Virus record (IMG/VR): IMGVR_UViG_3300048930_000283 | Length of the DNA: 64,000 nt | Source: a virus | Lineage: Duplodnaviria; Heunggongvirae; Uroviricota; Caudoviricetes | Reading direction: 5' to 3' (one strand) | Shown: piece by piece, positions 7,206 through 49,137 of the stretch | Layout: each line of letters starts with the position of its first letter | Position numbering within the stretch: position 1 is the stretch's first letter | Notes under the pieces: model-generated | Database searches by the model: none | What the model saw: the letters and a program-made list of their open reading frames with translations, nothing else | What the model was told of the DNA's origin: nothing | Made by a program: the position numbers and the translations under genes

Positions 7206-9879
7206 ATGGATTGTAATACTGTCTATCTGTGTTCTGCGCCACCTGTAATGAACCGCCTGTCACTTTCAGTGTAAAGGCTGGACGTAATGCCTGGTAGTTG
7301 TTATGGAAAACTACGATATAAACTGGAAGATCAGACGCATAGTAATAAGAATATTTGACTCTATATCTACCAGCATTATCTGGGTCCGCATCTACTGTTA
7401 CTCCATTCAGACCACTTGGAGATGCCCCAACATTCTCTGCTCCACCCAATTCAGACAAGTCGGATTGTTTGTATATTCTAACTTCAGTTCCGTCTATAAT
7501 ATTTGTTACATAAAAATCAACAGGATCATCTAATGGATATTGAATAGCTTGTGCTGTTGTATTGCTGCTAGTTAATGCATAAACTTCTGTCAAAATGTTA
7601 GCAGCGTTTGTTGCACTTGCTGTGACCCTGATCTTGAATTTGAAGCCGGCAACCTCATCCACTGTCTCACCTGATAAGTTCGATGCATTAAATGTCTTCC
7701 ATGTTCCATTCCAGCCAGATCCTGTGTCAATCTGGTATTCTGTAGTTATGTTAGTTGAGGTTGTAATTGTGGGTGCACTGTTCTGGAAGCTATCAATACC
7801 AATTATAGTGTGCGGCCATTCAAATATAGCGTAGTCACCTGAGTTAACTAATGCTAAACCTTGTGTAGAGTTAAACCCTGAAGTTCCTGTGGATGATGTA
7901 CTAAAGCTTGTAGTTACATATGGTGCATACTCTGCTGTAGGTTCACTAAACTTTAAACCTAAGCGCCCAGCTGTTGTACTGGTAAAATGATGATAAAAAC
8001 ATGAACCGTATATAGACGCAGTAGAAGCGGGTGCAATTCCTGCAAACCCGCTGTTCTTAACAATTTGGTTCAGTGCTGCAGACACCAGGTTCTTATATAC
8101 TGTGACGTTACCTTCGCAGTTCTCGATCAGCACTTCCTTGCTGGAGTTCACTGCGTTGTAAAACGTGGTAGCTATAAGGTTGAAATAAATGCGCTGGAAC
8201 TTCAAGCGCTGTGAGTTACCCGCATCATTACAGAAGTACAGCATGGCGTTGCTAGACCCTGCCGACAACTTACTAGCGTAGGTTCCAATATTCCTGGCCT
8301 TGACCCCATAAGCAGCGTTTAGATACAATATAGCCGTGTCAGGATGCACGTTAGCAACTGAGGTATACCATGAAAAGCCACTGATTACAGTATTCGAAGT
8401 ACCACCAATTAATTGAATAACTCCAACAGGTGGTGTTGTTGAACTTGATGTAGTATGGTGACTATCAGCGTATTGTTGATTGTTAATTGTAGTGTCTGTG
8501 CAAGTCAAAAAGTATAAAGATCCTCCAACATTTACGCAATTATTAAATGTCAAGCCGTCGCAATATGCAGCATAGAACGGGTGCGACGCCGCGTTGGTGC
8601 GGAATGTCCTGTTGGCAAAGAAGCATCCTGTGAAGGTCAGGTCGTTGCAATACTGGACGTTTGTGCCGTAGTCTGCCGACCCGATGGTACCGGTGCGGCC
8701 CAGTTTGCAACTGTCAATCGTTCCACCAGCGAAGTTGGATGTCAGCACCATCGCGGGCGCATCCTGCGCAATGGTGTAGTTGCCGTTGTGGCACTCCAAC
8801 AGATCAAGCGCGGTCGCGCATTCCGTCAGGGTGTATTGGTCGAAGAGTGCGAGGTTGTGCAACCGTAATGAGTACGCCTGCGACGAGTTGATCTGCCAAT
8901 GGCCAATAGCCCCGTCAATATCGATCTGGCCCGCGTTGGTGGTGGTGAAGTCCGGCCGCGTCGCCAGCGTGCCGTTGGGCACGGAATCCGAAGCCCGCGA
9001 GGCCGTGGCCGCCGACTTGAGGAATACGTTCGGTACGCGAAACTTCGCTCCACTTGTCGGTATTTTACCCCATGCAGTAGTACCGTTACCACCAAAGCGG
9101 ATGATGCCGCCACCTAAACACTCACAGAACTTACTACGAGCATCTGTTCCCATATGTGAAGCAGACCAAAATGTACCTGTACCTGTAATACAAGCTGGCC
9201 AGAATTCCCATGTACCGTTTGCAGCTTCATCAACCCATACACCAGGTAGATAGAAGTTAGCACCGCCATAATTAGGGAATTGTACCTGTTGATGCGCTGA
9301 ACCTGATCCTGTGGTTTCAGACTCGAACCAATCCCCTGTGATTGTGAATTTCTGTGCTCGGCCAATAGTAAAGCCAGCAGCGTCGTCCATGACAACTTCG
9401 ATCCATCCTCGGCGCCCTATACCATTTGCCAAACATAAATCTGTGGAGCCTTGAATCTCAAGTGTCTCATTATCTTGAAACGTGCCTGTGACACTCTTAA
9501 GCTTGAGGTATCCCGTCGCCGGCATAGCCGACCCGGCCGCTGTGGGCGTGGCGTTGATGGCCGACGTGCAGTTCATCAACTCGCCATACGCCCCGGAAGT
9601 CACCCCTGCGATGATGGTGCCCAGGGCCGGGACGTTTGGCGTGCCGATGCGGCCGTCGTAAGCGATCAGCCACACCTTCGTACCATCAATAACAACCTCG
9701 CCGCCCGAGGCCGCCGTCATAGTGAAAGACCCCATCGACCCAGCACGAGACGCTGCAGCATTCTTGCCGTCGCGGGTGTCGCTATCTATGGTGAAGACAG
9801 CGCCTGAATTAATGGTAAATGCTTCTCCTGCGGTTCTTGCTGCAGAATCAAATGTTTGCGATGTGCTTATTGTAGCTAT
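7204..9879 (-). CDS. Large tail spike/fibre with beta-helix-like region; probable 48-codon N-terminal extension beginning at ATA
   Basis: Frame stays open from 9735 up to ATA-GCT-ACA-ATA-AGC (IATISTSQTFDSAARTAGEAFTI...), with an in-frame TAA two codons further upstream. Confidence 0.65.
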   Translation of the reverse strand: MATISTSQTFDSAARTAGEAFTINSGAVFTIDSDTRDGKNAAASRAGSMGSFTMTAASGGEVVIDGTKVWLIAYDGRIGTPNVPALGTIIAGVTSGAYGELMNCTSAINATPTAAGSAMPATGYLKLKSVTGTFQDNETLEIQGSTDLCLANGIGRRGWIEVVMDDAAGFTIGRAQKFTITGDWFESETTGSGSAHQQVQFPNYGGANFYLPGVWVDEAANGTWEFWPACITGTGTFWSASHMGTDARSKFCECLGGGIIRFGGNGTTAWGKIPTSGAKFRVPNVFLKSAATASRASDSVPNGTLATRPDFTTTNAGQIDIDGAIGHWQINSSQAYSLRLHNLALFDQYTLTECATALDLLECHNGNYTIAQDAPAMVLTSNFAGGTIDSCKLGRTGTIGSADYGTNVQYCNDLTFTGCFFANRTFRTNAASHPFYAAYCDGLTFNNCVNVGGSLYFLTCTDTTINNQQYADSHHTTSSSTTPPVGVIQLIGGTSNTVISGFSWYTSVANVHPDTAILYLNAAYGVKARNIGTYASKLSAGSSNAMLYFCNDAGNSQRLKFQRIYFNLIATTFYNAVNSSKEVLIENCEGNVTVYKNLVSAALNQIVKNSGFAGIAPASTASIYGSCFYHHFTSTTAGRLGLKFSEPTAEYAPYVTTSFSTSSTGTSGFNSTQGLALVNSGDYAIFEWPHTIIGIDSFQNSAPTITTSTNITTEYQIDTGSGWNGTWKTFNASNLSGETVDEVAGFKFKIRVTASATNAANILTEVYALTSSNTTAQAIQYPLDDPVDFYVTNIIDGTEVRIYKQSDLSELGGAENVGASPSGLNGVTVDADPDNAGRYRVKYSYYYASDLPVYIVVFHNNYQALRPAFTLKVTGGSLQVAQNTDRQYYNP

Positions 9880-9882
9880 GAC

Positions 9883-10040
9883 TTACCCTTTCAAAACAAT
9901 TTCAATATTATTATCACTCTCTACGATAACCATATCAAGTGGTGCTTTATTATCAGATAATCTAATAGTTATAACAGTTTCTGCGGATAAGTCATAGATA
10001 AAGCATACAATTCACCAATAAGCTCTTGAAGTGTAATCAT
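9883..10040 (-). pseudogene. Small ORF with apparent 1-nt deletion frameshift
   Basis: MITLQELIGELYALSMTY then, after TATCCGCAG, AETVITIRLSDNKAPLDMVIVESDNNIEIVLKG* in another frame; span is 158 nt (3n-1). Confidence 0.5.
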
Positions 10041-36561: not shown

Positions 36562-36798
36562 TCAACTATTCAGAACCATCAATAAAAATTCCTCACTAAA
36601 TCCCTGAGCGGTCGCACCTTCCTCAGTAAGACCATAGGCCGTAACACCAAACCGAAAATCAGCTGGGCCAGCTGGGCCACGAGCCAAATCACTAACAATA
36701 TGTTTAGTGCCGTCTATAGCAGTAAGTATTAAATTCCTAGGAAGATTCTCAAATTCCTCGGGTGTTACTAACCACAATGATTTGACCCATCTCTTCAT
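36562..36798 (-). CDS. Hypothetical protein
   Basis: Start moved to MKRWVK (TAATG overlap with polymerase stop). Confidence 0.5.
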   Translation of the reverse strand: MKRWVKSLWLVTPEEFENLPRNLILTAIDGTKHIVSDLARGPAGPADFRFGVTAYGLTEEGATAQGFSEEFLLMVLNS

Positions 36799-38121
36799 TA
36801 TCCGAAAAAGTCCTCTAACGACGACTGCTCCTCTAACTTCCACTTAGCTGCAACAGCCAAACCCTCTAGAGGTTTTAGAAATGTCTTCTCAAATTGGGTA
36901 TCGTAATCAATATACCCTTTAATAGCATCTGGGAATGATATTCCTGCAGGTACAGCTAAGACATCTTCTTTAATTGGGTTCGGTAATTTCAAATATATGA
37001 ATCGTATCTTATCCGAATTTGCAATTGGTGGTATATCCTTATTGGCATAGTGAGAGTTATATAAAATAGATCCTCGAACATGAATGGGTGTACCTGATTT
37101 GTATCTACCAGAACCCAAACTCCATTTTTCTAGGTCTGTTACCCCACGAGGAAACGCTATGTCCTCAGGTGGCATTTGCATAAACTTCCCTCGAACCTCA
37201 GTTATATGTTTTTGCAGATCCTTCTCGGACTTCTCGAACATCAACTTCAACGAATCCTTTAAGATGGCTCTAATAGTGTGTGGTGTTGATGATCTAACAA
37301 TATCTAACCCCATAATTTTTAGTTTTGGCGGATCGTACTCAACCCCCTCAGAGTTATGAACCAATAATGCATACCTTTTCTTAGATACCCATAGTCCCTT
37401 GGATGCAATCGCCTCCCTCTTAGCATTCATTGTCTTGGTTCGACAATTGCAATAAGAGAACATTTTATCTACGGATTTCTGCACCACCTTCTGCAGCACA
37501 TCTTCACAAAACTTATCCAAAAATGCTGTTGTTTCCTTGATGTTCTTACCTGCACAGTGCTTATCTACTAGCGATTGTAGATTTAGGTATACTGAATCTG
37601 TGTCCAAATAAATTGCATAAGAAACATCTTCAGTTTTTAGAGCCTTGTTTAAGAATATATTTAGTTCTCTTTCGAGAAACTTATCTGATGCCTGACCAGT
37701 TAGAGTAATTGCCTCAGCAATACGAATGTCGTAATACCTAAACCCAGCATTTGAAACCGCACCATACGCAGAGTTGGCCTTTTGTGTTTAGTATAAGTCG
37801 TTAATTTATACCCATATAGCTGCATATTCCTATGCAGAACAGACTATATCATCATCTCATAGAGATGCTCCGTGCTTCAACTCACTTGAGTTTACACCTT
37901 GCGGTTAGTCGTTACACCTTCCCAAATAGGGCTCGGCTCGGTATTGTCCGGTCTGGAGTTTCACCGAATTCTCGGAGTTTTCGTGTAGAAATCACTTTCT
38001 ACCGCCTCTGCATTTAAAGGATTTTTAATGCCATTTGCTTATTATTCAATGAAGAAATTCTAGCTTCTAGTTCTCGTTTTCTCATTAAAAGCTGATCTAA
38101 AGTCATTGAGTGAATTTCCAT
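36798..38121 (-). CDS. gp43: DNA polymerase B, C-terminal subunit (gp43B); exons 38121-38017 and 37778-36798, 361 aa spliced
   Basis: RBS AGGAGG then MEIHSM...NNKQMALKIL|ANSAYG (motif B restored by splicing), YLDTDS (motif C), KKRY. Confidence 0.9.
37779..38016 (-). mobile_element. Group I intron (238 nt, no ORF) in gp43B
   Basis: Exon ends in U (CCUU pairs with GAGG, U.G at the site); GACTA/TAGTC P7; GATATAGTC; CTGCATA-GGAA-TATGCAG hairpin; terminal G; removal restores KILANSAYG. Confidence 0.9.
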
Positions 38122-38395
38122 TTTCGTTGCCTCCTTTCTTTATAATTATCGAACCATCAACATTACCAACAAATTCATCTACTCTGACCAACCTAATTCC
38201 TAATTTAGAGTATGACATTCCTTCATATTTCTTGCAAAAACTATTTCTTTCTGACGACATATTAAAATGAGGAAGAAATTTGGAATCCAACGTTCTTTGT
38301 GCTAATGTCGGAAACTCAGGCAAGAGAGTGTTGAATGTGTGAACTGAGTCAAAGATAAAATTTTCAAAAACGACTAAATAACCATTATTAGGCAC
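38060..38395 (-). CDS. Unknown ORF between gp43A and gp43B
   Basis: 111-aa ORF (GTG start, no clear RBS) overlapping the gp43B start in another frame. Confidence 0.45.
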   Translation of the reverse strand: MPNNGYLVVFENFIFDSVHTFNTLLPEFPTLAQRTLDSKFLPHFNMSSERNSFCKKYEGMSYSKLGIRLVRVDEFVGNVDGSIIIKKGGNENGNSLNDFRSAFNEKTRTRS

Positions 38396-38436
38396 ATTTA
38401 GTTGAACTCTAGTTATCTGATATGATTTATATTGTT

Positions 38437-39903
38437 CTACGTATTTCTCCTGTTTATTTCACTAACTATTTTCTGAAATTCATCTTCAAGCCTGAGCATC
38501 TCCTTTTTAGCACCTTTTCTACCATCTAACATCTCAGACATCAATTTCGGCAAAATGCCCTCTTTACCAATAGAATACGTTGATCCATTAGCAGCAACAG
38601 AGACCTCACCATCTCTAGGATACTCATTCATATCAACCATTTTATCTACGTTCATATCAACTATAGTTGAAGTGATGGTTTCTGGACTCATGTTCCATTG
38701 GCGAATGATATTTGGGTATAGAGAAGCAAAGTCGAAAGAAACCACCCACCCATACATGCCAGGAATTGGATCCTTTACATAGGCACCCTCGAATTCCCTA
38801 CTACTTCTCTTTGATTGTGGTGGGATAGCTATCTTTTGTTTAGATAGATAGTTGTAGATATACACATCCCAGGTCTTGACAGGACCGAACACATCCCTAA
38901 TATTACATTTTGCCTGATATGCAATCGAGATAACCAAATCAATCAATTGCATTTTATCATCCAACTTTAAAGGCAGAACCGTATCCTTACAGTTGTATTC
39001 AACGAATCGATTCCAATCTTTGCTGTAGAAGTCCTTGAACGTCGCATATGGGTTTTCAACCTTCTTCTCACCCAACTCAATTGATGAAATGTTATCTAGT
39101 GAATACGACTCCTGAGATGTATAGGTGAATTTCTTATACAACGTCAAATAGTCTAACTGAGTAACACCCAAAATCTCATAGGTCTGCACCTCTTTGCCTC
39201 TAATCTCAACCTTTCTCTCTTGAATAACACCAAATGGAGATAATTTCTTAACCCAATCATCATCCATTACACGAGCGATTCGGTTGACTAGATATGGAAA
39301 GTCAAATACATCAATAGACCAACCAGTTACAATTTCTGGATAATTCGCCTGCCAGTACTCAACAAACCCCCTTAGCATGGAATATTCATCTTTGAATAAC
39401 TTATACTCAAATTGGATATCACTATCTGCAGTTGGTGTGTATGACCTAGAACCAAACACAACCGACTTTCTGCTAGTTCTGTCTGTCAATGCTATTAGCA
39501 GGATTTCTTCATTGGCTGTTTCAATGTTAGGAAAACCTAGCTCCGAAGCACATTCTATATCCAAAGACTGAATGTTCATCTGCTTCGTGTCATATTGGAC
39601 TTCATCCGGGAAATGCTGATTAATATACTGATATTGAAACTGAGTCATTCCATGAAGCTCAAATCCTTCTACACCCTCATACTGTTTAACATAGTCTTTT
39701 GCCTCATTAATATCAGTGAATGATACCTCAGCTAAAGGATCACCATACAGAGAAACCCAATCCGAATGTTTCTTAGCACGAACGAAAAGAGAAGGAGAGA
39801 AAGAATCCTTGAGTGTGACCTTTCTCCCATTCTCTATACCGCGATAAAAAATTCTATTTCCGTACTGCCACGCCCCTATGTAAAATTTCAAAACCACCCC
39901 CAC
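38437..39903 (-). CDS. gp43: DNA polymerase B, N-terminal subunit (gp43A: exonuclease, palm A)
   Basis: LDIE, GWSIDVFDFPY, YNCKD, SFDFASLYP; ends at TAG within the fingers helix. Confidence 0.92.
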   Translation of the reverse strand: MGVVLKFYIGAWQYGNRIFYRGIENGRKVTLKDSFSPSLFVRAKKHSDWVSLYGDPLAEVSFTDINEAKDYVKQYEGVEGFELHGMTQFQYQYINQHFPDEVQYDTKQMNIQSLDIECASELGFPNIETANEEILLIALTDRTSRKSVVFGSRSYTPTADSDIQFEYKLFKDEYSMLRGFVEYWQANYPEIVTGWSIDVFDFPYLVNRIARVMDDDWVKKLSPFGVIQERKVEIRGKEVQTYEILGVTQLDYLTLYKKFTYTSQESYSLDNISSIELGEKKVENPYATFKDFYSKDWNRFVEYNCKDTVLPLKLDDKMQLIDLVISIAYQAKCNIRDVFGPVKTWDVYIYNYLSKQKIAIPPQSKRSSREFEGAYVKDPIPGMYGWVVSFDFASLYPNIIRQWNMSPETITSTIVDMNVDKMVDMNEYPRDGEVSVAANGSTYSIGKEGILPKLMSEMLDGRKGAKKEMLRLEDEFQKIVSEINRRNT

Positions 39904-40259
39904 TAAATATCAAACATACTTGAGGATACTCTAGGAAAGGAATCCTTTTTAGGGCACCTTCTCGAAGGATATAAACGACCCTGTTTCGTTATAACATGGT
40001 ACACAAAAACAACGTCACATAAATTTGGATTGACCCTACCACACCCAACATATGGTGTCGAGCCATTAGTAAATTTAGATCCCCCCTTAACCTGAACCTT
40101 TGCCAAATGGCCATCCTTTTCGGCAATAAAATCATATCCAGGATTTTTTAGTGACCTTGGCCAATTTATAATGCATCCTCGTTCGCTAAAATATGCGGCA
40201 GCAACTAGTTCAGCAGTTTGTCCAACTATAGTTCTCTCATTATGTTTATTTTTACTCAT
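39903..40259 (-). CDS. Free-standing PD-(D/E)XK endonuclease (homing-endonuclease-like)
   Basis: G..AE..AAAYF..RG, YDFIAEK...KVQVK. Confidence 0.75.
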   Translation of the reverse strand: MSKNKHNERTIVGQTAELVAAAYFSERGCIINWPRSLKNPGYDFIAEKDGHLAKVQVKGGSKFTNGSTPYVGCGRVNPNLCDVVFVYHVITKQGRLYPSRRCPKKDSFPRVSSSMFDI

Positions 40260-41527
40260 TTAAGTTCTCCAAACGAATTGGCAACATCCTTATCCTCACG
40301 GAAACAAACAAATCGAGGTAAGAACAACGACCACTTCCCGGTAAATTTATCCTGTATCTTTTGATTATACCTGACAGTAATGATCTTGTCAATTGTAGAA
40401 TCTCCAAGTGTCAACCGAACATCATCAGTAAATCCAGATACATTGACGGAGACAATACCATCAGAAGTTTCACAATCAAGAGCACCAACTTGCCCAATAA
40501 ATTTACCTTTACCTTCTTTCCACCCAACCACAACTAGGTCGGCCTCTTCCTCAGCCTTGATTTTCCCAAGGTCTTTAGTGCGCCTAGGAACCCACACTGA
40601 ATTAATATTTTTAAGAACAGCACCCTCTTCCCCATTACTAATGCACTTATTGTAGAAGTCTGTCGCCTCTTTTTCGTTATTTACTTCAACTGTTTCTACA
40701 ATAAAAAACTTATTTTCATCAATGTTACAATCAAGATCAGATTCAAATTCCAATACATCCATCAGACTTTGCAGTCTATCCTTATATGGTTTCTTACTGG
40801 TGAAATCTACGTTATCCCAAACGCAGAATCGAGCCATCTCAGCTTCAACCTCAGAAATGGTTCCTCGAATGGCTTTGTTTCCCAAACCATTGGATGTTTT
40901 TCTATCTAGAGGTTTTCCATTTTTGTAGAAAACAATCTCACCATCAAACGTCTGACCTGATTGCATGACACCCTTAGCATAGGAATCAAACTTACCAAGC
41001 AATTCAATTTGTTTTCCGTTTCGAGACCAGGCAGTTGCTTTCTTGCCATCATAATGAAGATGACACCGCATTCCATCTTTTTTTACTTGTGCATATGCGG
41101 GGTACTTGATACCAGATGTATCACTATGGGCAAGCATAACATCAAAGGTCGGAATAAGACCAGGCCAGATCTTATTGATTGTGGGGATACCAACACCACA
41201 CTTTAGGTCTCGTTCAATAACACGCTCAATTACTTCTGCATCATCTACATTGATGCAGCTCAGTAATGCGCCAAAATACTCAATACCTTTGTTTCCTGTA
41301 TATTCTCGAGACACCAATGGGTATAGGGATTTAAGGGCCCAATCTAGCCCCTGATCCTCTCTACACTTGTATGGCGGAATCTTTTTGATCCAATAGTTGA
41401 TGAAAGGATCATACGCAGCTTTAAACGTATCCTTTAGTAATTGATTGTTCTTCTCTCGTTTAAGAATTGCCTCCTTGGCTAGGCGTGAGTTGTCTGCTGC
41501 TAGTTCATTAAGAATTTTAAGTATCAT
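40256..41527 (-). CDS. gp30: ATP-dependent DNA ligase
   Basis: VKKDGMR, FDGEI, GEEGAVLK, KIK, SLFLPRF. Confidence 0.93.
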   Translation of the reverse strand: MILKILNELAADNSRLAKEAILKREKNNQLLKDTFKAAYDPFINYWIKKIPPYKCREDQGLDWALKSLYPLVSREYTGNKGIEYFGALLSCINVDDAEVIERVIERDLKCGVGIPTINKIWPGLIPTFDVMLAHSDTSGIKYPAYAQVKKDGMRCHLHYDGKKATAWSRNGKQIELLGKFDSYAKGVMQSGQTFDGEIVFYKNGKPLDRKTSNGLGNKAIRGTISEVEAEMARFCVWDNVDFTSKKPYKDRLQSLMDVLEFESDLDCNIDENKFFIVETVEVNNEKEATDFYNKCISNGEEGAVLKNINSVWVPRRTKDLGKIKAEEEADLVVVGWKEGKGKFIGQVGALDCETSDGIVSVNVSGFTDDVRLTLGDSTIDKIITVRYNQKIQDKFTGKWSLFLPRFVCFREDKDVANSFGELK

Positions 41528-42527: not shown

Positions 42528-42794
42528 TTATGACCAATCTTCCCAGATAAACTTAGATGCATCTATTTCTAATTTATCCATCCACTCCCTCAAATCACCA
42601 TTATCCATGGAAGTCGAACCATGAAGTTCATCACCAACAATATTGATATCCCAACTATCACCCTTATATTGTTGAGTTCCGTATGCGTATGTCGCCTGCA
42701 TCAACCCAACCAACTGCTCGTCAGTTATATCAGCTAGTTTAACCACAAAACTAGCTGAGCTGGAATTACTAACAAACCCCATTCTAATTTTCAT
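42528..42794 (-). CDS. 'FVSNSSS' family protein 3
   Basis: MKIRMGFVSNSSSASF. Confidence 0.75.
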   Translation of the reverse strand: MKIRMGFVSNSSSASFVVKLADITDEQLVGLMQATYAYGTQQYKGDSWDINIVGDELHGSTSMDNGDLREWMDKLEIDASKFIWEDWS

Positions 42795-43291
42795 TCGTTA
42801 TCGTTCCCACCCTGAATAAACGACCCAGACCCAAATAAGAAATCTTTTAGTGTAGTTTCATCACTAAACATCTTTGTGTTTTCTCCTTCGGTAGCACTAG
42901 ATTGATGGTCGATATACGCAGAATCTGGTAAATTCCAAGTAATAGAACTAGCTCCGGTGTGCCGTTTTATAACCATATCTAGTACGTACTCAAAGGTCAT
43001 CTCACCTCTAAGAACATCTATCAATACTTTGTGACCAAATTTAGAATCAACGGATTCAAATCTAAAGTTAGTTGCATTACCCATCATTCTAGCTTGGATT
43101 TTAGCGAAGTTTAATCTGTCGTATATCGAATCATATTTGCGATTTGTCCACCCAAATTCACATTCACCAGAATCACCCAAAACTAATTCTTGACCAGCGA
43201 ATACATCATCAGACCACTCCAACCACCCGGGACTTATGACAATAAAACTTGAGGAAGAGCTATTACTCACAAAACCACATCGAATCTTCAT
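42791..43291 (-). CDS. 'FVSNSSS' family protein 2
   Basis: Start moved to MKIRCGFVSNSSSSSF (RBS GAGGA). Confidence 0.75.
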   Translation of the reverse strand: MKIRCGFVSNSSSSSFIVISPGWLEWSDDVFAGQELVLGDSGECEFGWTNRKYDSIYDRLNFAKIQARMMGNATNFRFESVDSKFGHKVLIDVLRGEMTFEYVLDMVIKRHTGASSITWNLPDSAYIDHQSSATEGENTKMFSDETTLKDFLFGSGSFIQGGNDNE

Positions 43292-43292
43292 A

Positions 43293-43730
43293 TCAATCCT
43301 CAACGGTAAAGGTTACAAAATCCTCAGAGAATAGGTTATCAAAACAACCAATTTCACTTCGTAATTCTGAACCAACACCACCACTTTCGTCTGAGACACG
43401 AACCAAATAAAAAATCATATCTTTATTCTGCTCCATTGCTGACTCCAACTGAGAACCATAAACCTCACCAACAGTATGAATTTCTTTATCAAAATCGTAA
43501 TTATCCTTGATATATCGTTTAACCTCATGCGCTTCATCCACAATATAATCAATGACGCCGGGCATATTACAGTATGCCTTCTGACAAATCTTCTTAACTA
43601 CTGCTCTATCCGGAATTGGTTTTGAGTCACTCAAGATATCCAAAAGATGTTGCTTTTCATCTTTAATTCGGATACCCATAATAAAACTTGAAGAAGAACT
43701 ATTACTTACAAAACCCATTCTAACTTTCAT
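43293..43730 (-). CDS. 'FVSNSSS' family protein 1
   Basis: Start moved to MKVRMGFVSNSSSSSF (RBS GGAG). Confidence 0.75.
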   Translation of the reverse strand: MKVRMGFVSNSSSSSFIMGIRIKDEKQHLLDILSDSKPIPDRAVVKKICQKAYCNMPGVIDYIVDEAHEVKRYIKDNYDFDKEIHTVGEVYGSQLESAMEQNKDMIFYLVRVSDESGGVGSELRSEIGCFDNLFSEDFVTFTVED

Positions 43731-43800
43731 ATGTCGTCTCCATAACAAAACAACTACATTTACTTCTTAATTTTTGCTCACACTTTTGATGCCTGTTCAT

Positions 43801-44919
43801 TCACAATGTCTTTAAAATTGGTCGGTATATAGTGTCAGATGCATTACCAATATCACCATGATACAAATCATATACTGGACAAAGTCTGCAATCACCACAA
43901 ATATGCGGGTGTTCCTGCTCAGTCAATTTCTTGCGAAAACGAAGTGTCTCAGGATCGTTCCAAACTTCCATAAAGTCCTTCTTACCAAGAACATTTACAC
44001 CAGACCAACCAGGTTGATCCTCAGTAAATGAACAATGCCAATAAACACCATCCACATTGATATAACTAGAGAACAACCCAGATTCACACGACTCGGCCAT
44101 CTCGGCATAACGATCGAAGTTCTTATCATTCTTCATAGAATACAGGAAAATAGGAGCAGTGCAAGAATCGAATCCAAGTTGTACCTCACGGTCAAGAGCA
44201 TGGTCAATAAGACCTTTGTACTTGGCAACATCCTTAACGATATTCATTCCATTTCGCTTGCCCTTGGGTTTTAGAGTAAGGAACATTACGGCCTTCAAGT
44301 GTTTGACTAACCTCTCGTCCGTAGCGGCATCCTCAATTAGATCATGACACTTTTGCAAAGTTTCAACCGATACGACTTGGTGAATGTTGCATTGGTGAAT
44401 GCCAGCCTTGCTTAGTAGCTGAATTGCATCGTAACAAACGTCCTTATCATGGTACAGACTAACTGCAACGCCACCACAATACTCACCCAAAATCTTCACC
44501 CACTCATCTGTGAGCCCATATCCGTTTATGGTGATGTTAGGTGCAACGCCATGTGCTCGACAATACTCAAACATCTTAACCAAATCGGTACACGAATCCA
44601 TATCCCCGATTCCGAATGCGATCTGGGTCAGTGTCTTAGGCATTGAGTCGAATATCTGTTTGAATGTGTCAAACGACATTTGCTCACCCTTGGGGATATT
44701 TGACTTGTAACAGTGCTTGCATGGTCCCTGATCTGTACCATGGCAAACAGTTGACACCTCTAGGTCGAGGATCTCAGGACCGAAAGGTGAATATTTCGGG
44801 TCATCTGCTGTGGTTTTGCCCCAACGAGCAAAATAACCCGACTGTTTATCAAACACGAAGTTGTATTCGTCTGATACTAGACGCTTATGCTGATCATTTT
44901 CTAAGATTGTGTATTTCAT
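43801..44919 (-). CDS. Radical SAM enzyme with SPASM/Twitch-like C-terminus
   Basis: C-x7-C-x2-C (CHGTDQGPCKHC), TING, CESG...HCSF...CRLC. Confidence 0.85.
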   Translation of the reverse strand: MKYTILENDQHKRLVSDEYNFVFDKQSGYFARWGKTTADDPKYSPFGPEILDLEVSTVCHGTDQGPCKHCYKSNIPKGEQMSFDTFKQIFDSMPKTLTQIAFGIGDMDSCTDLVKMFEYCRAHGVAPNITINGYGLTDEWVKILGEYCGGVAVSLYHDKDVCYDAIQLLSKAGIHQCNIHQVVSVETLQKCHDLIEDAATDERLVKHLKAVMFLTLKPKGKRNGMNIVKDVAKYKGLIDHALDREVQLGFDSCTAPIFLYSMKNDKNFDRYAEMAESCESGLFSSYINVDGVYWHCSFTEDQPGWSGVNVLGKKDFMEVWNDPETLRFRKKLTEQEHPHICGDCRLCPVYDLYHGDIGNASDTIYRPILKTL

Positions 44920-44940
44920 CTAAATTTAAAATAGTTTATG

Positions 44941-45013
44941 TGGGCCCGGAGGGACTTGAACCCCCAATCTACGAATTATGAGTTCGCTGCCTTGACCATT
45001 CGGCTACAGGCCC
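44941..45013 (-). tRNA. tRNA with CAU anticodon, probably Ile2 (lysidine type); CCA not encoded
   Basis: GGGCCTG/CGGGCCC acceptor stem, loop CT-CAT-AA, GGTTCAAGTCC T-arm; lacks the initiator GGG/CCC anticodon stem. Confidence 0.88.
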
Positions 45014-47555: not shown

Positions 47556-47757
47556 AACTTAACCTATACCAAACTGCGTCATCTAATTTCTCAAAATAAA
47601 CATTTTCTGACAATGAAATGTTTGGCCAATAGAACCTACCATTAGATGGATAATCTAATAGATTCTTATACAAATCAAATGGTGTATCATCAAATAGACA
47701 CCAAACACTAACAGGATACCAACTACCAATAACTCGTTTATGATTATAGTGTTTCAT
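47530..47757 (-). CDS. Hypothetical protein
   Basis: Start moved to MKHYNH (ATGA overlap). Confidence 0.5.
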   Translation of the reverse strand: MKHYNHKRVIGSWYPVSVWCLFDDTPFDLYKNLLDYPSNGRFYWPNISLSENVYFEKLDDAVWYRLSYGNGKNTR

Positions 47758-48221
47758 ACTTCCCAAGGAAAGACAACCCAGCGTTTATCAATAGCTCGAT
47801 TGATACTATTAGTCCAGTAATTCGGAGTAAAGACTCGCTGATCAGTATTATTCCACAATGAAACAACCTGTATGTTTGGTAAATTCAATTCAGAATATTC
47901 TTTTATCGAGGAGAATAGTTCTTTCATGGTTACTCCAGAATCCACAATGTCTTCGACAATCAAAAACTTTCTACCTTCCGTTGAACTAATGACAATATCA
48001 GTCCACTTCAAATAATCTCGTTCAAGAAAATCTCTAGTCGACCAATTTAATGGAATTAGTGGTTTATTGAATTTGTGAGATAGATATGTTGCTGGTACTA
48101 ATCCACCTCGCATAACCCCAACCACAGCATCTGGTATAAAATCCTCTGCGTTGCACCACTTATATAAACTAATAACGTCTTCTTCAAATAAGGTTTGATT
48201 GTATGTTATCAACTCAGCCAT
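47754..48221 (-). CDS. Type I phosphoribosyltransferase (Gpt/XGPRT-like)
   Basis: Start moved to MAELITY; VGVMRGGLVP, LIVEDIVDSGVT, WVVFPWE. Confidence 0.88.
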   Translation of the reverse strand: MAELITYNQTLFEEDVISLYKWCNAEDFIPDAVVGVMRGGLVPATYLSHKFNKPLIPLNWSTRDFLERDYLKWTDIVISSTEGRKFLIVEDIVDSGVTMKELFSSIKEYSELNLPNIQVVSLWNNTDQRVFTPNYWTNSINRAIDKRWVVFPWEV

Positions 48222-48222
48222 A

Positions 48223-49137
48223 TTACGTCCCCACTTTATTAGAAAATAGTACAGATTGCAACCTACCACTAATATGATACCCTTCTTTAATGGCTCTAGT
48301 AGCAATTCGTTCAAGACAATCAGTATCTGTTTGCTGTTCCTTAGTGCTCCCAACTGGCATAACATAAATCGGTGGTAATGGAAAATGCATCTCCCTCAAT
48401 TCGTTAACCTTCTCATTAAGTTCATTCCACGCAGCATCACTATCATTCATCACGAATTTTAAATGACCGCTTACATTTTCAGAAAAATCGAAATATGAAG
48501 CAATAACATCTGGTTTCCATGAGTCGGTTTCCCCGGAAACATTAAACAATTTTGGTGATACATTCCAATTTATGTAAGATGCAGATTTACCTGATCTGGT
48601 ACCGTCATGCATATCATTTACCCACTGAATAAAATCTTTCTTCAAAGGTACTGTTCCATTTGTTTCAATTTGAATCCACCATGGATACAAATCAATATCT
48701 TCAATTGAATAATTTGAAAATGCAAAGTTCCAAAAATCAACAATTTTCATCTGTTGCAACATTGGTTCACCACCAGTAAAGCAGATGTCAATCTTATTTT
48801 CTGTTAATGGATGCTGCCAACTAATAACCAATTGACGCAACGAATCGGCCAATTCCTTATTAGTGTAATCCTTGGCTAAGTGTTTATACAATGGAGACCA
48901 ACTATACCCGGAATCGCAACCGTATTCAAATATTGGCAACTCATTTAAATTTTTGGTATTGAATACACCTTCAATTGAAAATTGGGGTAGAACCCACGTA
49001 GATGGGTTCGTTGGGTCTTTTTGCTTAAAACCTGAACAATTTAGGTTGCAGCCAAATAACCTAACAAACGCTGTTAAAACACCTGTTCTATTTCCTTCAC
49101 CCTGAATACTAAGAAATGGCGGTTCGCCTAGACGCAT
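48223..49137 (-). CDS. queE: 7-carboxy-7-deazaguanine synthase (radical SAM)
   Basis: SIQGEG, VRLFGCNLNC...CD, FTGGEP, IETNG, VSPK, RLQ. Confidence 0.9.
   Translation of the reverse strand: MRLGEPPFLSIQGEGNRTGVLTAFVRLFGCNLNCSGFKQKDPTNPSTWVLPQFSIEGVFNTKNLNELPIFEYGCDSGYSWSPLYKHLAKDYTNKELADSLRQLVISWQHPLTENKIDICFTGGEPMLQQMKIVDFWNFAFSNYSIEDIDLYPWWIQIETNGTVPLKKDFIQWVNDMHDGTRSGKSASYINWNVSPKLFNVSGETDSWKPDVIASYFDFSENVSGHLKFVMNDSDAAWNELNEKVNELREMHFPLPPIYVMPVGSTKEQQTDTDCLERIATRAIKEGYHISGRLQSVLFSNKVGT

Follow-up and report, generated by a model that had tools for sequence, protein, structure and literature searches.

Organization of the radical SAM and tagged-protein locus

A 64,000-nucleotide (nt) stretch, termed here the window, of the tailed-phage record IMGVR_UViG_3300048930_000283 from IMG/VR contains a gene for a radical S-adenosylmethionine (SAM) enzyme followed by three genes whose products share a short N-terminal sequence, termed here the tag. 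As deduced from translation, the four minus-strand genes are co-directional and lie head to tail; a 70-nt gap separates the radical SAM gene from the first tagged gene, while the ends of the tagged genes overlap or nearly abut. The features of the locus are listed below, with the lengths (in amino acids, aa) and coordinates of the tagged genes starting at the ATG of the motif.

43801-44919, minus strand: radical SAM enzyme of 372 aa, family phrog_7293, with a SPASM/twitch-like C-terminal half and a four-stranded N-terminal β domain
44710-44745, minus strand: codons of the radical SAM cluster motif C59-x7-C67-x2-C70, located by translation
43293-43730, minus strand: tagged protein 1, 145 aa, with an acidic body; tag at residues 1-16 (43683-43730)
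42791-43291, minus strand: tagged protein 2, 166 aa; tag at residues 1-16 (43244-43291)
42528-42794, minus strand: tagged protein 3, 88 aa; tag at residues 1-16 (42747-42794), with Ala at position 14

The N-termini of the 145-, 166- and 88-aa proteins read MKVRMGFVSNSSSSSF, MKIRCGFVSNSSSSSF and MKIRMGFVSNSSSASF, respectively, and conform to a common tag, MK(I/V)RxGFVSNSSS(S/A)SF. Translation bears out the initial report, made in a first-pass annotation of this DNA, of three consecutive genes (145, 166 and 88 aa) with a near-invariant 16-aa N-terminus. A tag-pattern search of the full 104-kilobase (kb) virus record retrieved only these three tag genes. The phage displays a T4-like backbone comprising RegA, UvsX, the gp43 polymerase and an ATP-dependent ligase, and its gp43 polymerase is ~45% identical to those of cyanomyoviruses. 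A tRNA-Met gene (anticodon CAT; 44940-45013, minus strand), the window's only tRNA, is located directly upstream of the radical SAM gene. An Rfam scan of the window identified tRNA only, and promoter and terminator scans returned fewer sites than in shuffled sequence.

The tag is carried by unrelated acidic bodies

The three bodies, taken from residue 19 onward, present no mutual BLASTP match even at E ≤ 10, and their isoelectric points (pI) are 4.63 (145 aa), 4.59 (166 aa) and 4.05 (88 aa), in agreement with their earlier description as unrelated and acidic. The family phrog_7397 matches all three proteins only via the tag (residues 1-22/36, E ~1e-4), and none of the three matches it over its full length. 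No match to the window's tagged proteins was found in Pfam, NCBIfam or PADLOC, and none of ten further tagged proteins contains a Pfam domain above cut-off.

The distribution of the bodies differs from one protein to the next. A word-based homologue search revealed a single relative of the 145-aa protein, a near copy at 94% identity. Comparison of the 166- and 145-aa proteins with isolate phages by tblastn gave three chance-level matches and then none, a search in which the tag was probably masked by low-complexity filtering. The 166-aa body is a member of a large viral family (278 homologues; alignment A1) in which the motifs EFGW, YIDHQS and GGNDN are invariant. This alignment was gathered through the body, and in it N10 to S13 of the tag are invariant and S14 to F16 nearly so, a conservation that exceeds that of most body motifs. 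The 88-aa body represents a recurrent family of ~85-110 aa with 18 other relatives at other loci (19 BLAST matches including its own). Searches for a known fold of the 166-aa body were negative in the Foldseek PDB set (best E 0.88), by VIA-align wide (best Z 2.0) and among AFDB clusters; its ESM Atlas matches are exclusively uncharacterised viral clusters, with template modelling (TM) scores of 0.66-0.68.

A total of 232 tagged viral proteins was collected, with a median length of 129 aa and a maximum of 305 aa, and the 226 of at least 45 aa were clustered. Their bodies fall into at least 79 BLAST clusters, and the median pI across 355 bodies is 4.5. Some tagged open reading frames (ORFs) comprise just 37-52 aa, so that little body remains. 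Some database proteins (among P0122-P0131) contain two complete tags, each with its own Met, one at residue 1 and one internal, and look like neighbouring tag genes that were fused or read through.

These data bear on a reading in which the tag is simply a structural β-strand of a fold common to its carriers, the outcome that would have argued against a modification system. In the AlphaFold2 (AF2) model of the 166-aa protein the overall predicted local distance difference test score (pLDDT) is 84, while residues 1-11 remain below 50; an exposed tail, but not a core strand, would be expected to stay unplaced in this way while the rest of the model is confident. The 79 or more unrelated body clusters and the unplaced tag residues 1-11 are thus at odds with a shared fold of which the tag would be a structural strand.

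The tag is conserved as a peptide and is widespread

Copies of the tag differ in whether AGY or TCN codons encode their Ser residues, with no change in the peptide. This switching indicates selection on the peptide and not on a DNA signal; a DNA-level repeat or recombination signal is ruled out by the synonymous changes. A degenerate DNA tag pattern was located in at least 120 stretches of IMG/VR and at least 120 of prokaryotic genomes. Whole records hold 1-10 tag genes, and a reversed control pattern gave 0 matches in 53 of 53 records, against 1-10 real matches per positive record. At a larger scale, a profile of 40 N-terminal positions matched 24,864 cluster representatives (E ≤ 0.001) among 1.84 billion, and in almost all of these the match begins at residue 1.

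Four variants of the tag were distinguished: GFVS, the most frequent, D[FY]VS, D[FY]VT and SLVS. The commonest variant dominates every record, with a few records presenting one or two minority variants. Two chemistries were considered at the variable positions. A glycyl-radical-like R-x-G-F site is ruled out, since entire clades have D, S or N in place of G6 and the spacing is unlike that of RVxG(Y/F), while a three-residue cyclophane anchored on F7 (F-x-S) is unlikely because F7 is Leu in the SLVS variant.

The radical SAM enzyme resembles peptide and protein maturases

The 372-aa enzyme matches phrog_7293, a phage radical SAM family whose name assigns no function, over its full length (E 3.7e-80; enzyme residues 5-356 on profile positions 18-367 of 384). 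The Pfam SPASM domain (PF13186) was recognised at residues 278-344 with 25.0 bits, above the cut-off of 21.5. An atypical C-x7-C-x2-C motif and a Cys-rich C-terminal domain had been noted initially, and both were found. In an alignment of 23 family members (A2), conservation is complete for C59 and C70 and at least 90% for C67, while the loop between the first two cluster Cys extends from the canonical x3 to ~x16, with x7 here. By sequence, and as a refinement of the initial description, CX7CX2C is an insertion variant within a family in which several members have the canonical CX3CX2C.

A full SPASM domain has seven conserved Cys that bind two auxiliary 4Fe-4S clusters. The enzyme family does not display this complement, as the only further invariant Cys in the 23 members are C253, C278, C296 and C347, while the window's enzyme has C341 and C344 in addition, neither of them conserved. 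Four invariant auxiliary Cys are enough for one auxiliary cluster, and the domain is therefore more twitch-like than full SPASM. A weak NCBIfam match to the twitch model NF033640 was also obtained (E 3e-4). The best NCBIfam matches are SPASM maturases, including the MftC and WgkB models, all weak and far below cut-offs; the anSME model is absent from them.

The AF2 model of the enzyme (pLDDT 88.7) is predicted to adopt the partial TIM-barrel fold of radical SAM enzymes. Its N-terminal 35 residues are modelled as a four-stranded sheet without helices, and no PqqD-like RiPP recognition element (RRE; RiPP, ribosomally synthesized and post-translationally modified peptide) was identified, either as a Pfam PqqD match or in the helix-free N-terminal domain of the model. 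Structural comparison using Foldseek revealed SuiB (E 2e-11, TM 0.68), CteB, SkfB, anSMEcpe (E 1.3e-8), TigE and PqqE as the nearest solved structures, all of which are peptide- or protein-modifying maturases. The likeness to SPASM peptide and protein maturases, anSME included, that had been raised in the first-pass annotation agrees with the structure matches.

The same search reached a probability of 1.00 for BtrN, viperin and MoaA as well as for SuiB, CteB, SkfB, anSME and PqqE, and the presence of viperin bears on a different role for the tagged proteins. They might regulate or chaperone the enzyme as activators, inhibitors or scaffolds, the real substrate being a small molecule or a nucleic acid. 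The radical SAM core does present a weak viperin-type likeness (PADLOC pVip E 4.8e-5, in addition to the Foldseek match), and nucleotide-related genes (a phosphoribosyltransferase and a second iron-sulphur (Fe-S) enzyme) lie in the window. However, the best structural matches are maturases with auxiliary-cluster domains and not viperin, up to 10 different tagged proteins per genome are hard to explain for a single enzyme, and no nucleotide-pathway gene is conserved beside the pair. We regard regulation of the enzyme by the tagged proteins as improbable.

Enzyme and tag co-occur in both directions

The first-pass annotation had proposed co-occurrence of the motif with this enzyme family as a check, and the result was positive in both directions. 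Starting from the tag, phrog_7293 is present in 35 of 39 tag-bearing IMG/VR records, a figure that becomes 13 of 13 when only records of at least 90% completeness are counted; its base rate in isolate phages is 173 of 50,697 genomes. Starting from the enzyme, the strict tag was found within 10 kb in 60 of 80 enzyme-centred loci, with every copy on the enzyme's strand and the tag genes, in up to nine copies, mostly directly downstream of the enzyme. A relaxed motif adds eight loci with variant tags and whole-record searches a further two, giving ~70 of 80, in which nearly all tag genes share the enzyme's strand; the remaining tagless loci are small fragments and one complete 322-kb phage. The enzymes of the co-occurrence set are 30-57% identical to that of the window. 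Enzyme and tag are both present in the isolates Lw1, D479, Miro and GAP161, and both are absent from three cyanomyoviruses that are close to this phage by DNA polymerase.

Tag genes lie in regions of small hypothetical genes. No family other than enzyme and tag recurs in more than 8 of 79 loci, so that the unit comprises enzyme and tag with no third conserved gene, and neither a protease nor an exporter is conserved near the pair in these 79 loci.

Tag variants follow the clades of the enzyme

The D[FY]VS and D[FY]VT variants each correspond to one clade of the enzyme tree, both supported at 100/100 and located on long branches. The 88-aa body family provides a direct comparison, since it carries GFVS in the window and, in a relative at another locus (L222:11463-11795), DFVT, the tag variant of that genome; the tag therefore follows the resident enzyme and not the ancestry of the body. 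G-type enzymes have 85 conserved columns, and no more than 6 of these differ in both D clades. F30 and Q176 are among these 6, and both are set by the complex model described below against tag residue 6, the position of the G-to-D change (P ~0.012). The barrel residues and the Asn-Ser run remain constant across all variants.

The data also allow an evaluation of whether the tag could be an enzyme-independent signal for targeting, assembly or self-association, such as a capsid-targeting sequence or a polar-zipper strand, with the enzyme merely residing in the same variable regions. T4 internal proteins offer a precedent, with a short N-terminal sequence on unrelated bodies, and this phage is T4-like with its tag genes among small hypothetical genes. 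Against such a signal stand the two-way co-occurrence at genome level across enzymes of such divergence, the tag variant that follows the enzyme clade, the same pair in bacterial operons and a complex model that passes its controls, while the tag lacks the (L/I)xE protease site of the T4 type. An enzyme-independent signal is thus highly implausible. Enzyme and tag very probably constitute one functional system.

Predicted docking of the tag on the enzyme

An enzyme-peptide complex model had likewise been suggested as a check. Built from the enzyme together with SAM, two 4Fe-4S clusters and a tag alignment of 40 residues, the model places the tag in the enzyme with an ipSAE interface score of 0.90, compared with 0.05 for the best control. 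Model runs have at least 71% of contacts in common, with a partner pLDDT of 55-59. Tag residues 1-20 contact a set of positions that includes enzyme residues 27-34 and most of the invariant columns of the family. In particular, tag residues 2-7 pair with the enzyme strand 27-33, the most confident contacts of the model, and residues 7-20 run along enzyme positions 99-103, 126-130, 148-152, 176-180, 247-253, 270-280, 284 and 296-298. It is likely that the enzyme binds the tag directly.

Binding can be read in two ways. The tag may be a docking peptide and nothing more, with the chemistry directed at the body immediately beyond it or at a third molecule brought by the body, be it a host protein, a nucleic acid or a metabolite, so that the tagged proteins would be interchangeable specificity subunits. 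Linkage, co-variation and predicted binding suit docking equally well, the strand pairing of tag 2-7 with enzyme 27-33 is what the model holds most firmly, RiPP leaders provide a precedent for handles, and the extreme diversity of bodies (at least 79 clusters in 226 proteins; 24,864 overall) is as expected of target-recognition modules. However, a handle has no need of an invariant Asn and five Ser (N10-S13 invariant and S14-F16 nearly so in A1), the model sets tag residues 8-20 against invariant residues of the barrel and the auxiliary cluster, the bodies present no common residue as a possible shared target, and ORFs of 37-52 aa leave little body. A tag that serves as a handle alone is accordingly a minority reading in our view, less likely than modification of the tag itself, which is favoured because N10-S15 is invariant, the bodies lack a shared feature and the predicted path of the tag passes through the active site.

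A bacterial sister form lies beside an Avs2-like gene

In prokaryotic genomes, the DFVT variant dominates among the matches listed, and the enzyme is located within 8 kb of the tag in 82 of the 120 prokaryotic loci among them. In Acetatifactor muris (L233, 1061-6831) the gene order comprises a 984-aa Avs2-like protein, a 142-aa protein, a 137-aa tagged protein (GFVT), the enzyme and a 332-aa protein. The 984-aa protein is Avs2-like by PADLOC (E 9e-16) and has an N-terminal LmuA/HamA-like piece, while the 332-aa protein contains an M1E1E6-like "integron cassette" domain. Sporomusa sp. KB1 (L251, 55-4281) displays the same lower order, with a small protein, a tagged protein, the enzyme and an M1E1E6-like protein; its large upstream ORF has no PADLOC or Pfam match. 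The bacterial form suggests, speculatively, a role of the pair in phage-host conflict.

Proposed mechanism and its weighing

In the mechanism that we propose, tag residues K2-V8 would dock as a β-strand on the strand of the enzyme's N-terminal sheet formed by residues 27-33. The barrel would thereby receive the Asn-Ser5-Phe run (residues 10-16) at a point flanked by the SAM and auxiliary clusters, where a 5'-deoxyadenosyl radical would abstract a hydrogen atom, leading to a covalent change in the tag. Oxidation of a Ser CH2OH group, as in anSME or BtrN, is the simplest candidate chemistry for a radical SAM enzyme whose auxiliary cluster accepts electrons; a crosslink and an epimerisation are candidates of equal standing.

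The initial proposal of one maturase with several clients sharing a recognition or modification site is supported by co-occurrence, clade co-variation, docking and the nearest solved structures; a covalent change, and its location in SNSSS, would be predictions of this proposal. The alternative first offered for the same motif, an autoprocessing N-S site, found no support of its own. We consider that the chances are about even for a two-part phage system in which a radical SAM enzyme with an auxiliary Fe-S domain modifies the tag of unrelated small acidic proteins, and that a covalent change inside the tag is as well supported as not.

Several observations weigh against this interpretation. 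The genetic link, the co-variation and the docking are computational results, from which we infer catalysis, its site in the tag and the reaction type, and both enzyme activity and tag modification are predictions from sequences and models. The Pfam Radical_SAM match (PF04055) of the enzyme, at 26.3 bits (E 9.6e-6), is narrowly below its gathering cut-off of 29.5. Four tag-bearing records lack the enzyme, all of them 26-40% complete, and some tag genes lie 20-45 kb from the enzyme, so that the enzyme-tag pair is not always an operon. The complete 322-kb phage without a tag (G044, IMGVR_UViG_3300028886_000031, locus L201) is a real exception: it encodes an enzyme homologue at 40% identity and the degenerate pattern retrieved no tag gene in its whole record, meaning either that its tag has diverged or that its enzyme serves another client. 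As evidence, the co-variation amounts to no more than two or three independent events, and the D clades show divergence throughout. Because much of the Asn-Ser run was prescribed in the tag searches, its invariance is partly circular outside alignment A1. With regard to docking, the 0.90 mark is reached by 58 of 80 solved complexes and by 2 of 110 mismatched pairs, a calibration outside of which our custom alignments and ligands fall, and the tag pLDDT of 55-59 makes the placement of the Ser run uncertain. Finally, the conserved N-terminal segment in RiPP systems usually acts as a handle and is not itself the site of modification.

If the enzyme does modify the tag, this would constitute an undescribed post-translational modification, present on tens of thousands of phage protein families and on proteins of bacterial immune-type operons. 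It would offer an entry to phage "dark matter", the small acidic early-type proteins without assigned function, and would extend the radical SAM/SPASM superfamily by a branch that modifies proteins and has a portable 16-residue recognition tag, possibly useful as a tool. It would also link phage biology with Avs-like STAND defence. A broader and more tentative idea, which we would not expect to hold in full, is that a covalent mark in a universal tag licenses, stabilises or localises fast-evolving small acidic effectors and that the same chemistry is used or watched by Avs2-like STAND operons, making it a shared currency of the phage-host arms race and a new kind of post-translational tagging. 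The system is open to direct study in Lw1 and RB43, culturable phages that grow on laboratory E. coli.

Other features of the window

The gp43 DNA polymerase is split in two ORFs (36798-39903, minus strand), an N-terminal ORF of 488 aa (38437-39903, minus strand) and a C-terminal ORF of 269 aa with the DTDS motif (36798-37607, minus strand). The ~830 nt between the two halves contain a 111-aa ORF (38060-38395) without a Pfam match, and no intron was identified there in Rfam at the gathering threshold. A 118-aa ORF (39903-40259, minus strand) is located between the polymerase and the ATP-dependent DNA ligase (40256-41527); its weak match to a PD-(D/E)XK endonuclease, at 24.9 bits slightly below cut-off, suggests that it may be a mobile nuclease. 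A second Fe-S enzyme-like gene (48223-49137, minus strand), with CNLNC close to the N-terminus and a weak match to Fer4_12, is overlapped by a long TTG-start ORF (47754-48365, minus strand), of which the tested part (47754-48230, 158 aa) is a phosphoribosyltransferase. The two genes are possibly paired in nucleotide or base modification, with no relation to the tag system. The GC content is 0.50 in the 2-kb bin at 8001-10000, compared with 0.33-0.42 across the remaining window.

Comparison with known systems

The anSME and AtsB enzymes are radical SAM proteins with a C-terminal auxiliary Fe-S domain that act on whole proteins and oxidise Ser or Cys within a short motif. The phage enzyme shares with them the radical SAM core, the C-terminal auxiliary Fe-S domain and the lack of an RRE, and anSMEcpe is among its best structural matches. 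In contrast, the anSME substrate motif (C/S)-x-(P/A)-x-R, also given as (C/S)xPxR, is absent from the tag MK(I/V)RxGFVSNSSSSSF, the phage family retains four invariant auxiliary Cys compared with seven in full SPASM, and its presumed clients are at least 24,864 unrelated clusters and not one enzyme family, with the motif at the extreme N-terminus.

The best fold matches of the enzyme are the SPASM/twitch maturases of RiPPs (SuiB of streptide, CteB, SkfB, PqqE and MftC). As in these, the prediction is that a conserved N-terminal peptide binds through strand addition and delivers a segment to the barrel. However, the phage enzyme lacks a PqqD-like RRE and its N-terminal domain is a four-stranded sheet, and its clients are folded proteins of 60-300 aa. 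RiPP precursors are short, in contrast with clients of median 129 aa and up to 305 aa, and no protease or exporter is conserved nearby. Here, both the handle and the presumed target lie within 16 invariant residues.

In the prochlorosins, one ProcM enzyme serves ~30 ProcA peptides with a shared leader. The phage system similarly presents one enzyme per genome for several tandem genes that share an N-terminal sequence and vary in the remainder. This contrasts with the prochlorosins in that the variable part there is a short modified core and here a whole protein domain, that the conserved part here probably holds the site, and that the enzyme there is a lanthionine synthetase and not a radical SAM protein.

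The internal proteins of T4 (IPI-III and Alt) carry a capsid-targeting sequence that the prohead protease cuts at (L/I)xE and that is not known to have an enzyme partner. In both cases small, rapidly evolving proteins of T4-like phages have a short N-terminal sequence in common despite being unrelated; the tag differs in its lack of an (L/I)xE site.

No description of the tag, or of its pairing with the enzyme, was found in the literature searched for the tag sequence, for phage radical SAM/SPASM proteins and for RB43/Slopekvirus radical SAM. The nearest printed description is that of the C-terminal FxSxx peptide and its radical SAM/SPASM enzyme in STAND-associated systems (PMC7159879). In these conflict systems, FxsA peptides ending in FxSxx-COOH are accompanied by the radical SAM/SPASM enzyme FxsB (Kaur et al. 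2020, PMC7159879), and the C-terminal motif is freed by a peptidase (PMC7159879). The tag of the phage form is N-terminal, has another sequence and lacks a STAND partner. Nevertheless, both arrangements comprise variable proteins with a short conserved Ser-containing piece encoded beside a radical SAM/SPASM gene, and the STAND NTPase of the FxsA/FxsB systems has a counterpart in the Avs2-like protein that adjoins the bacterial sister form.

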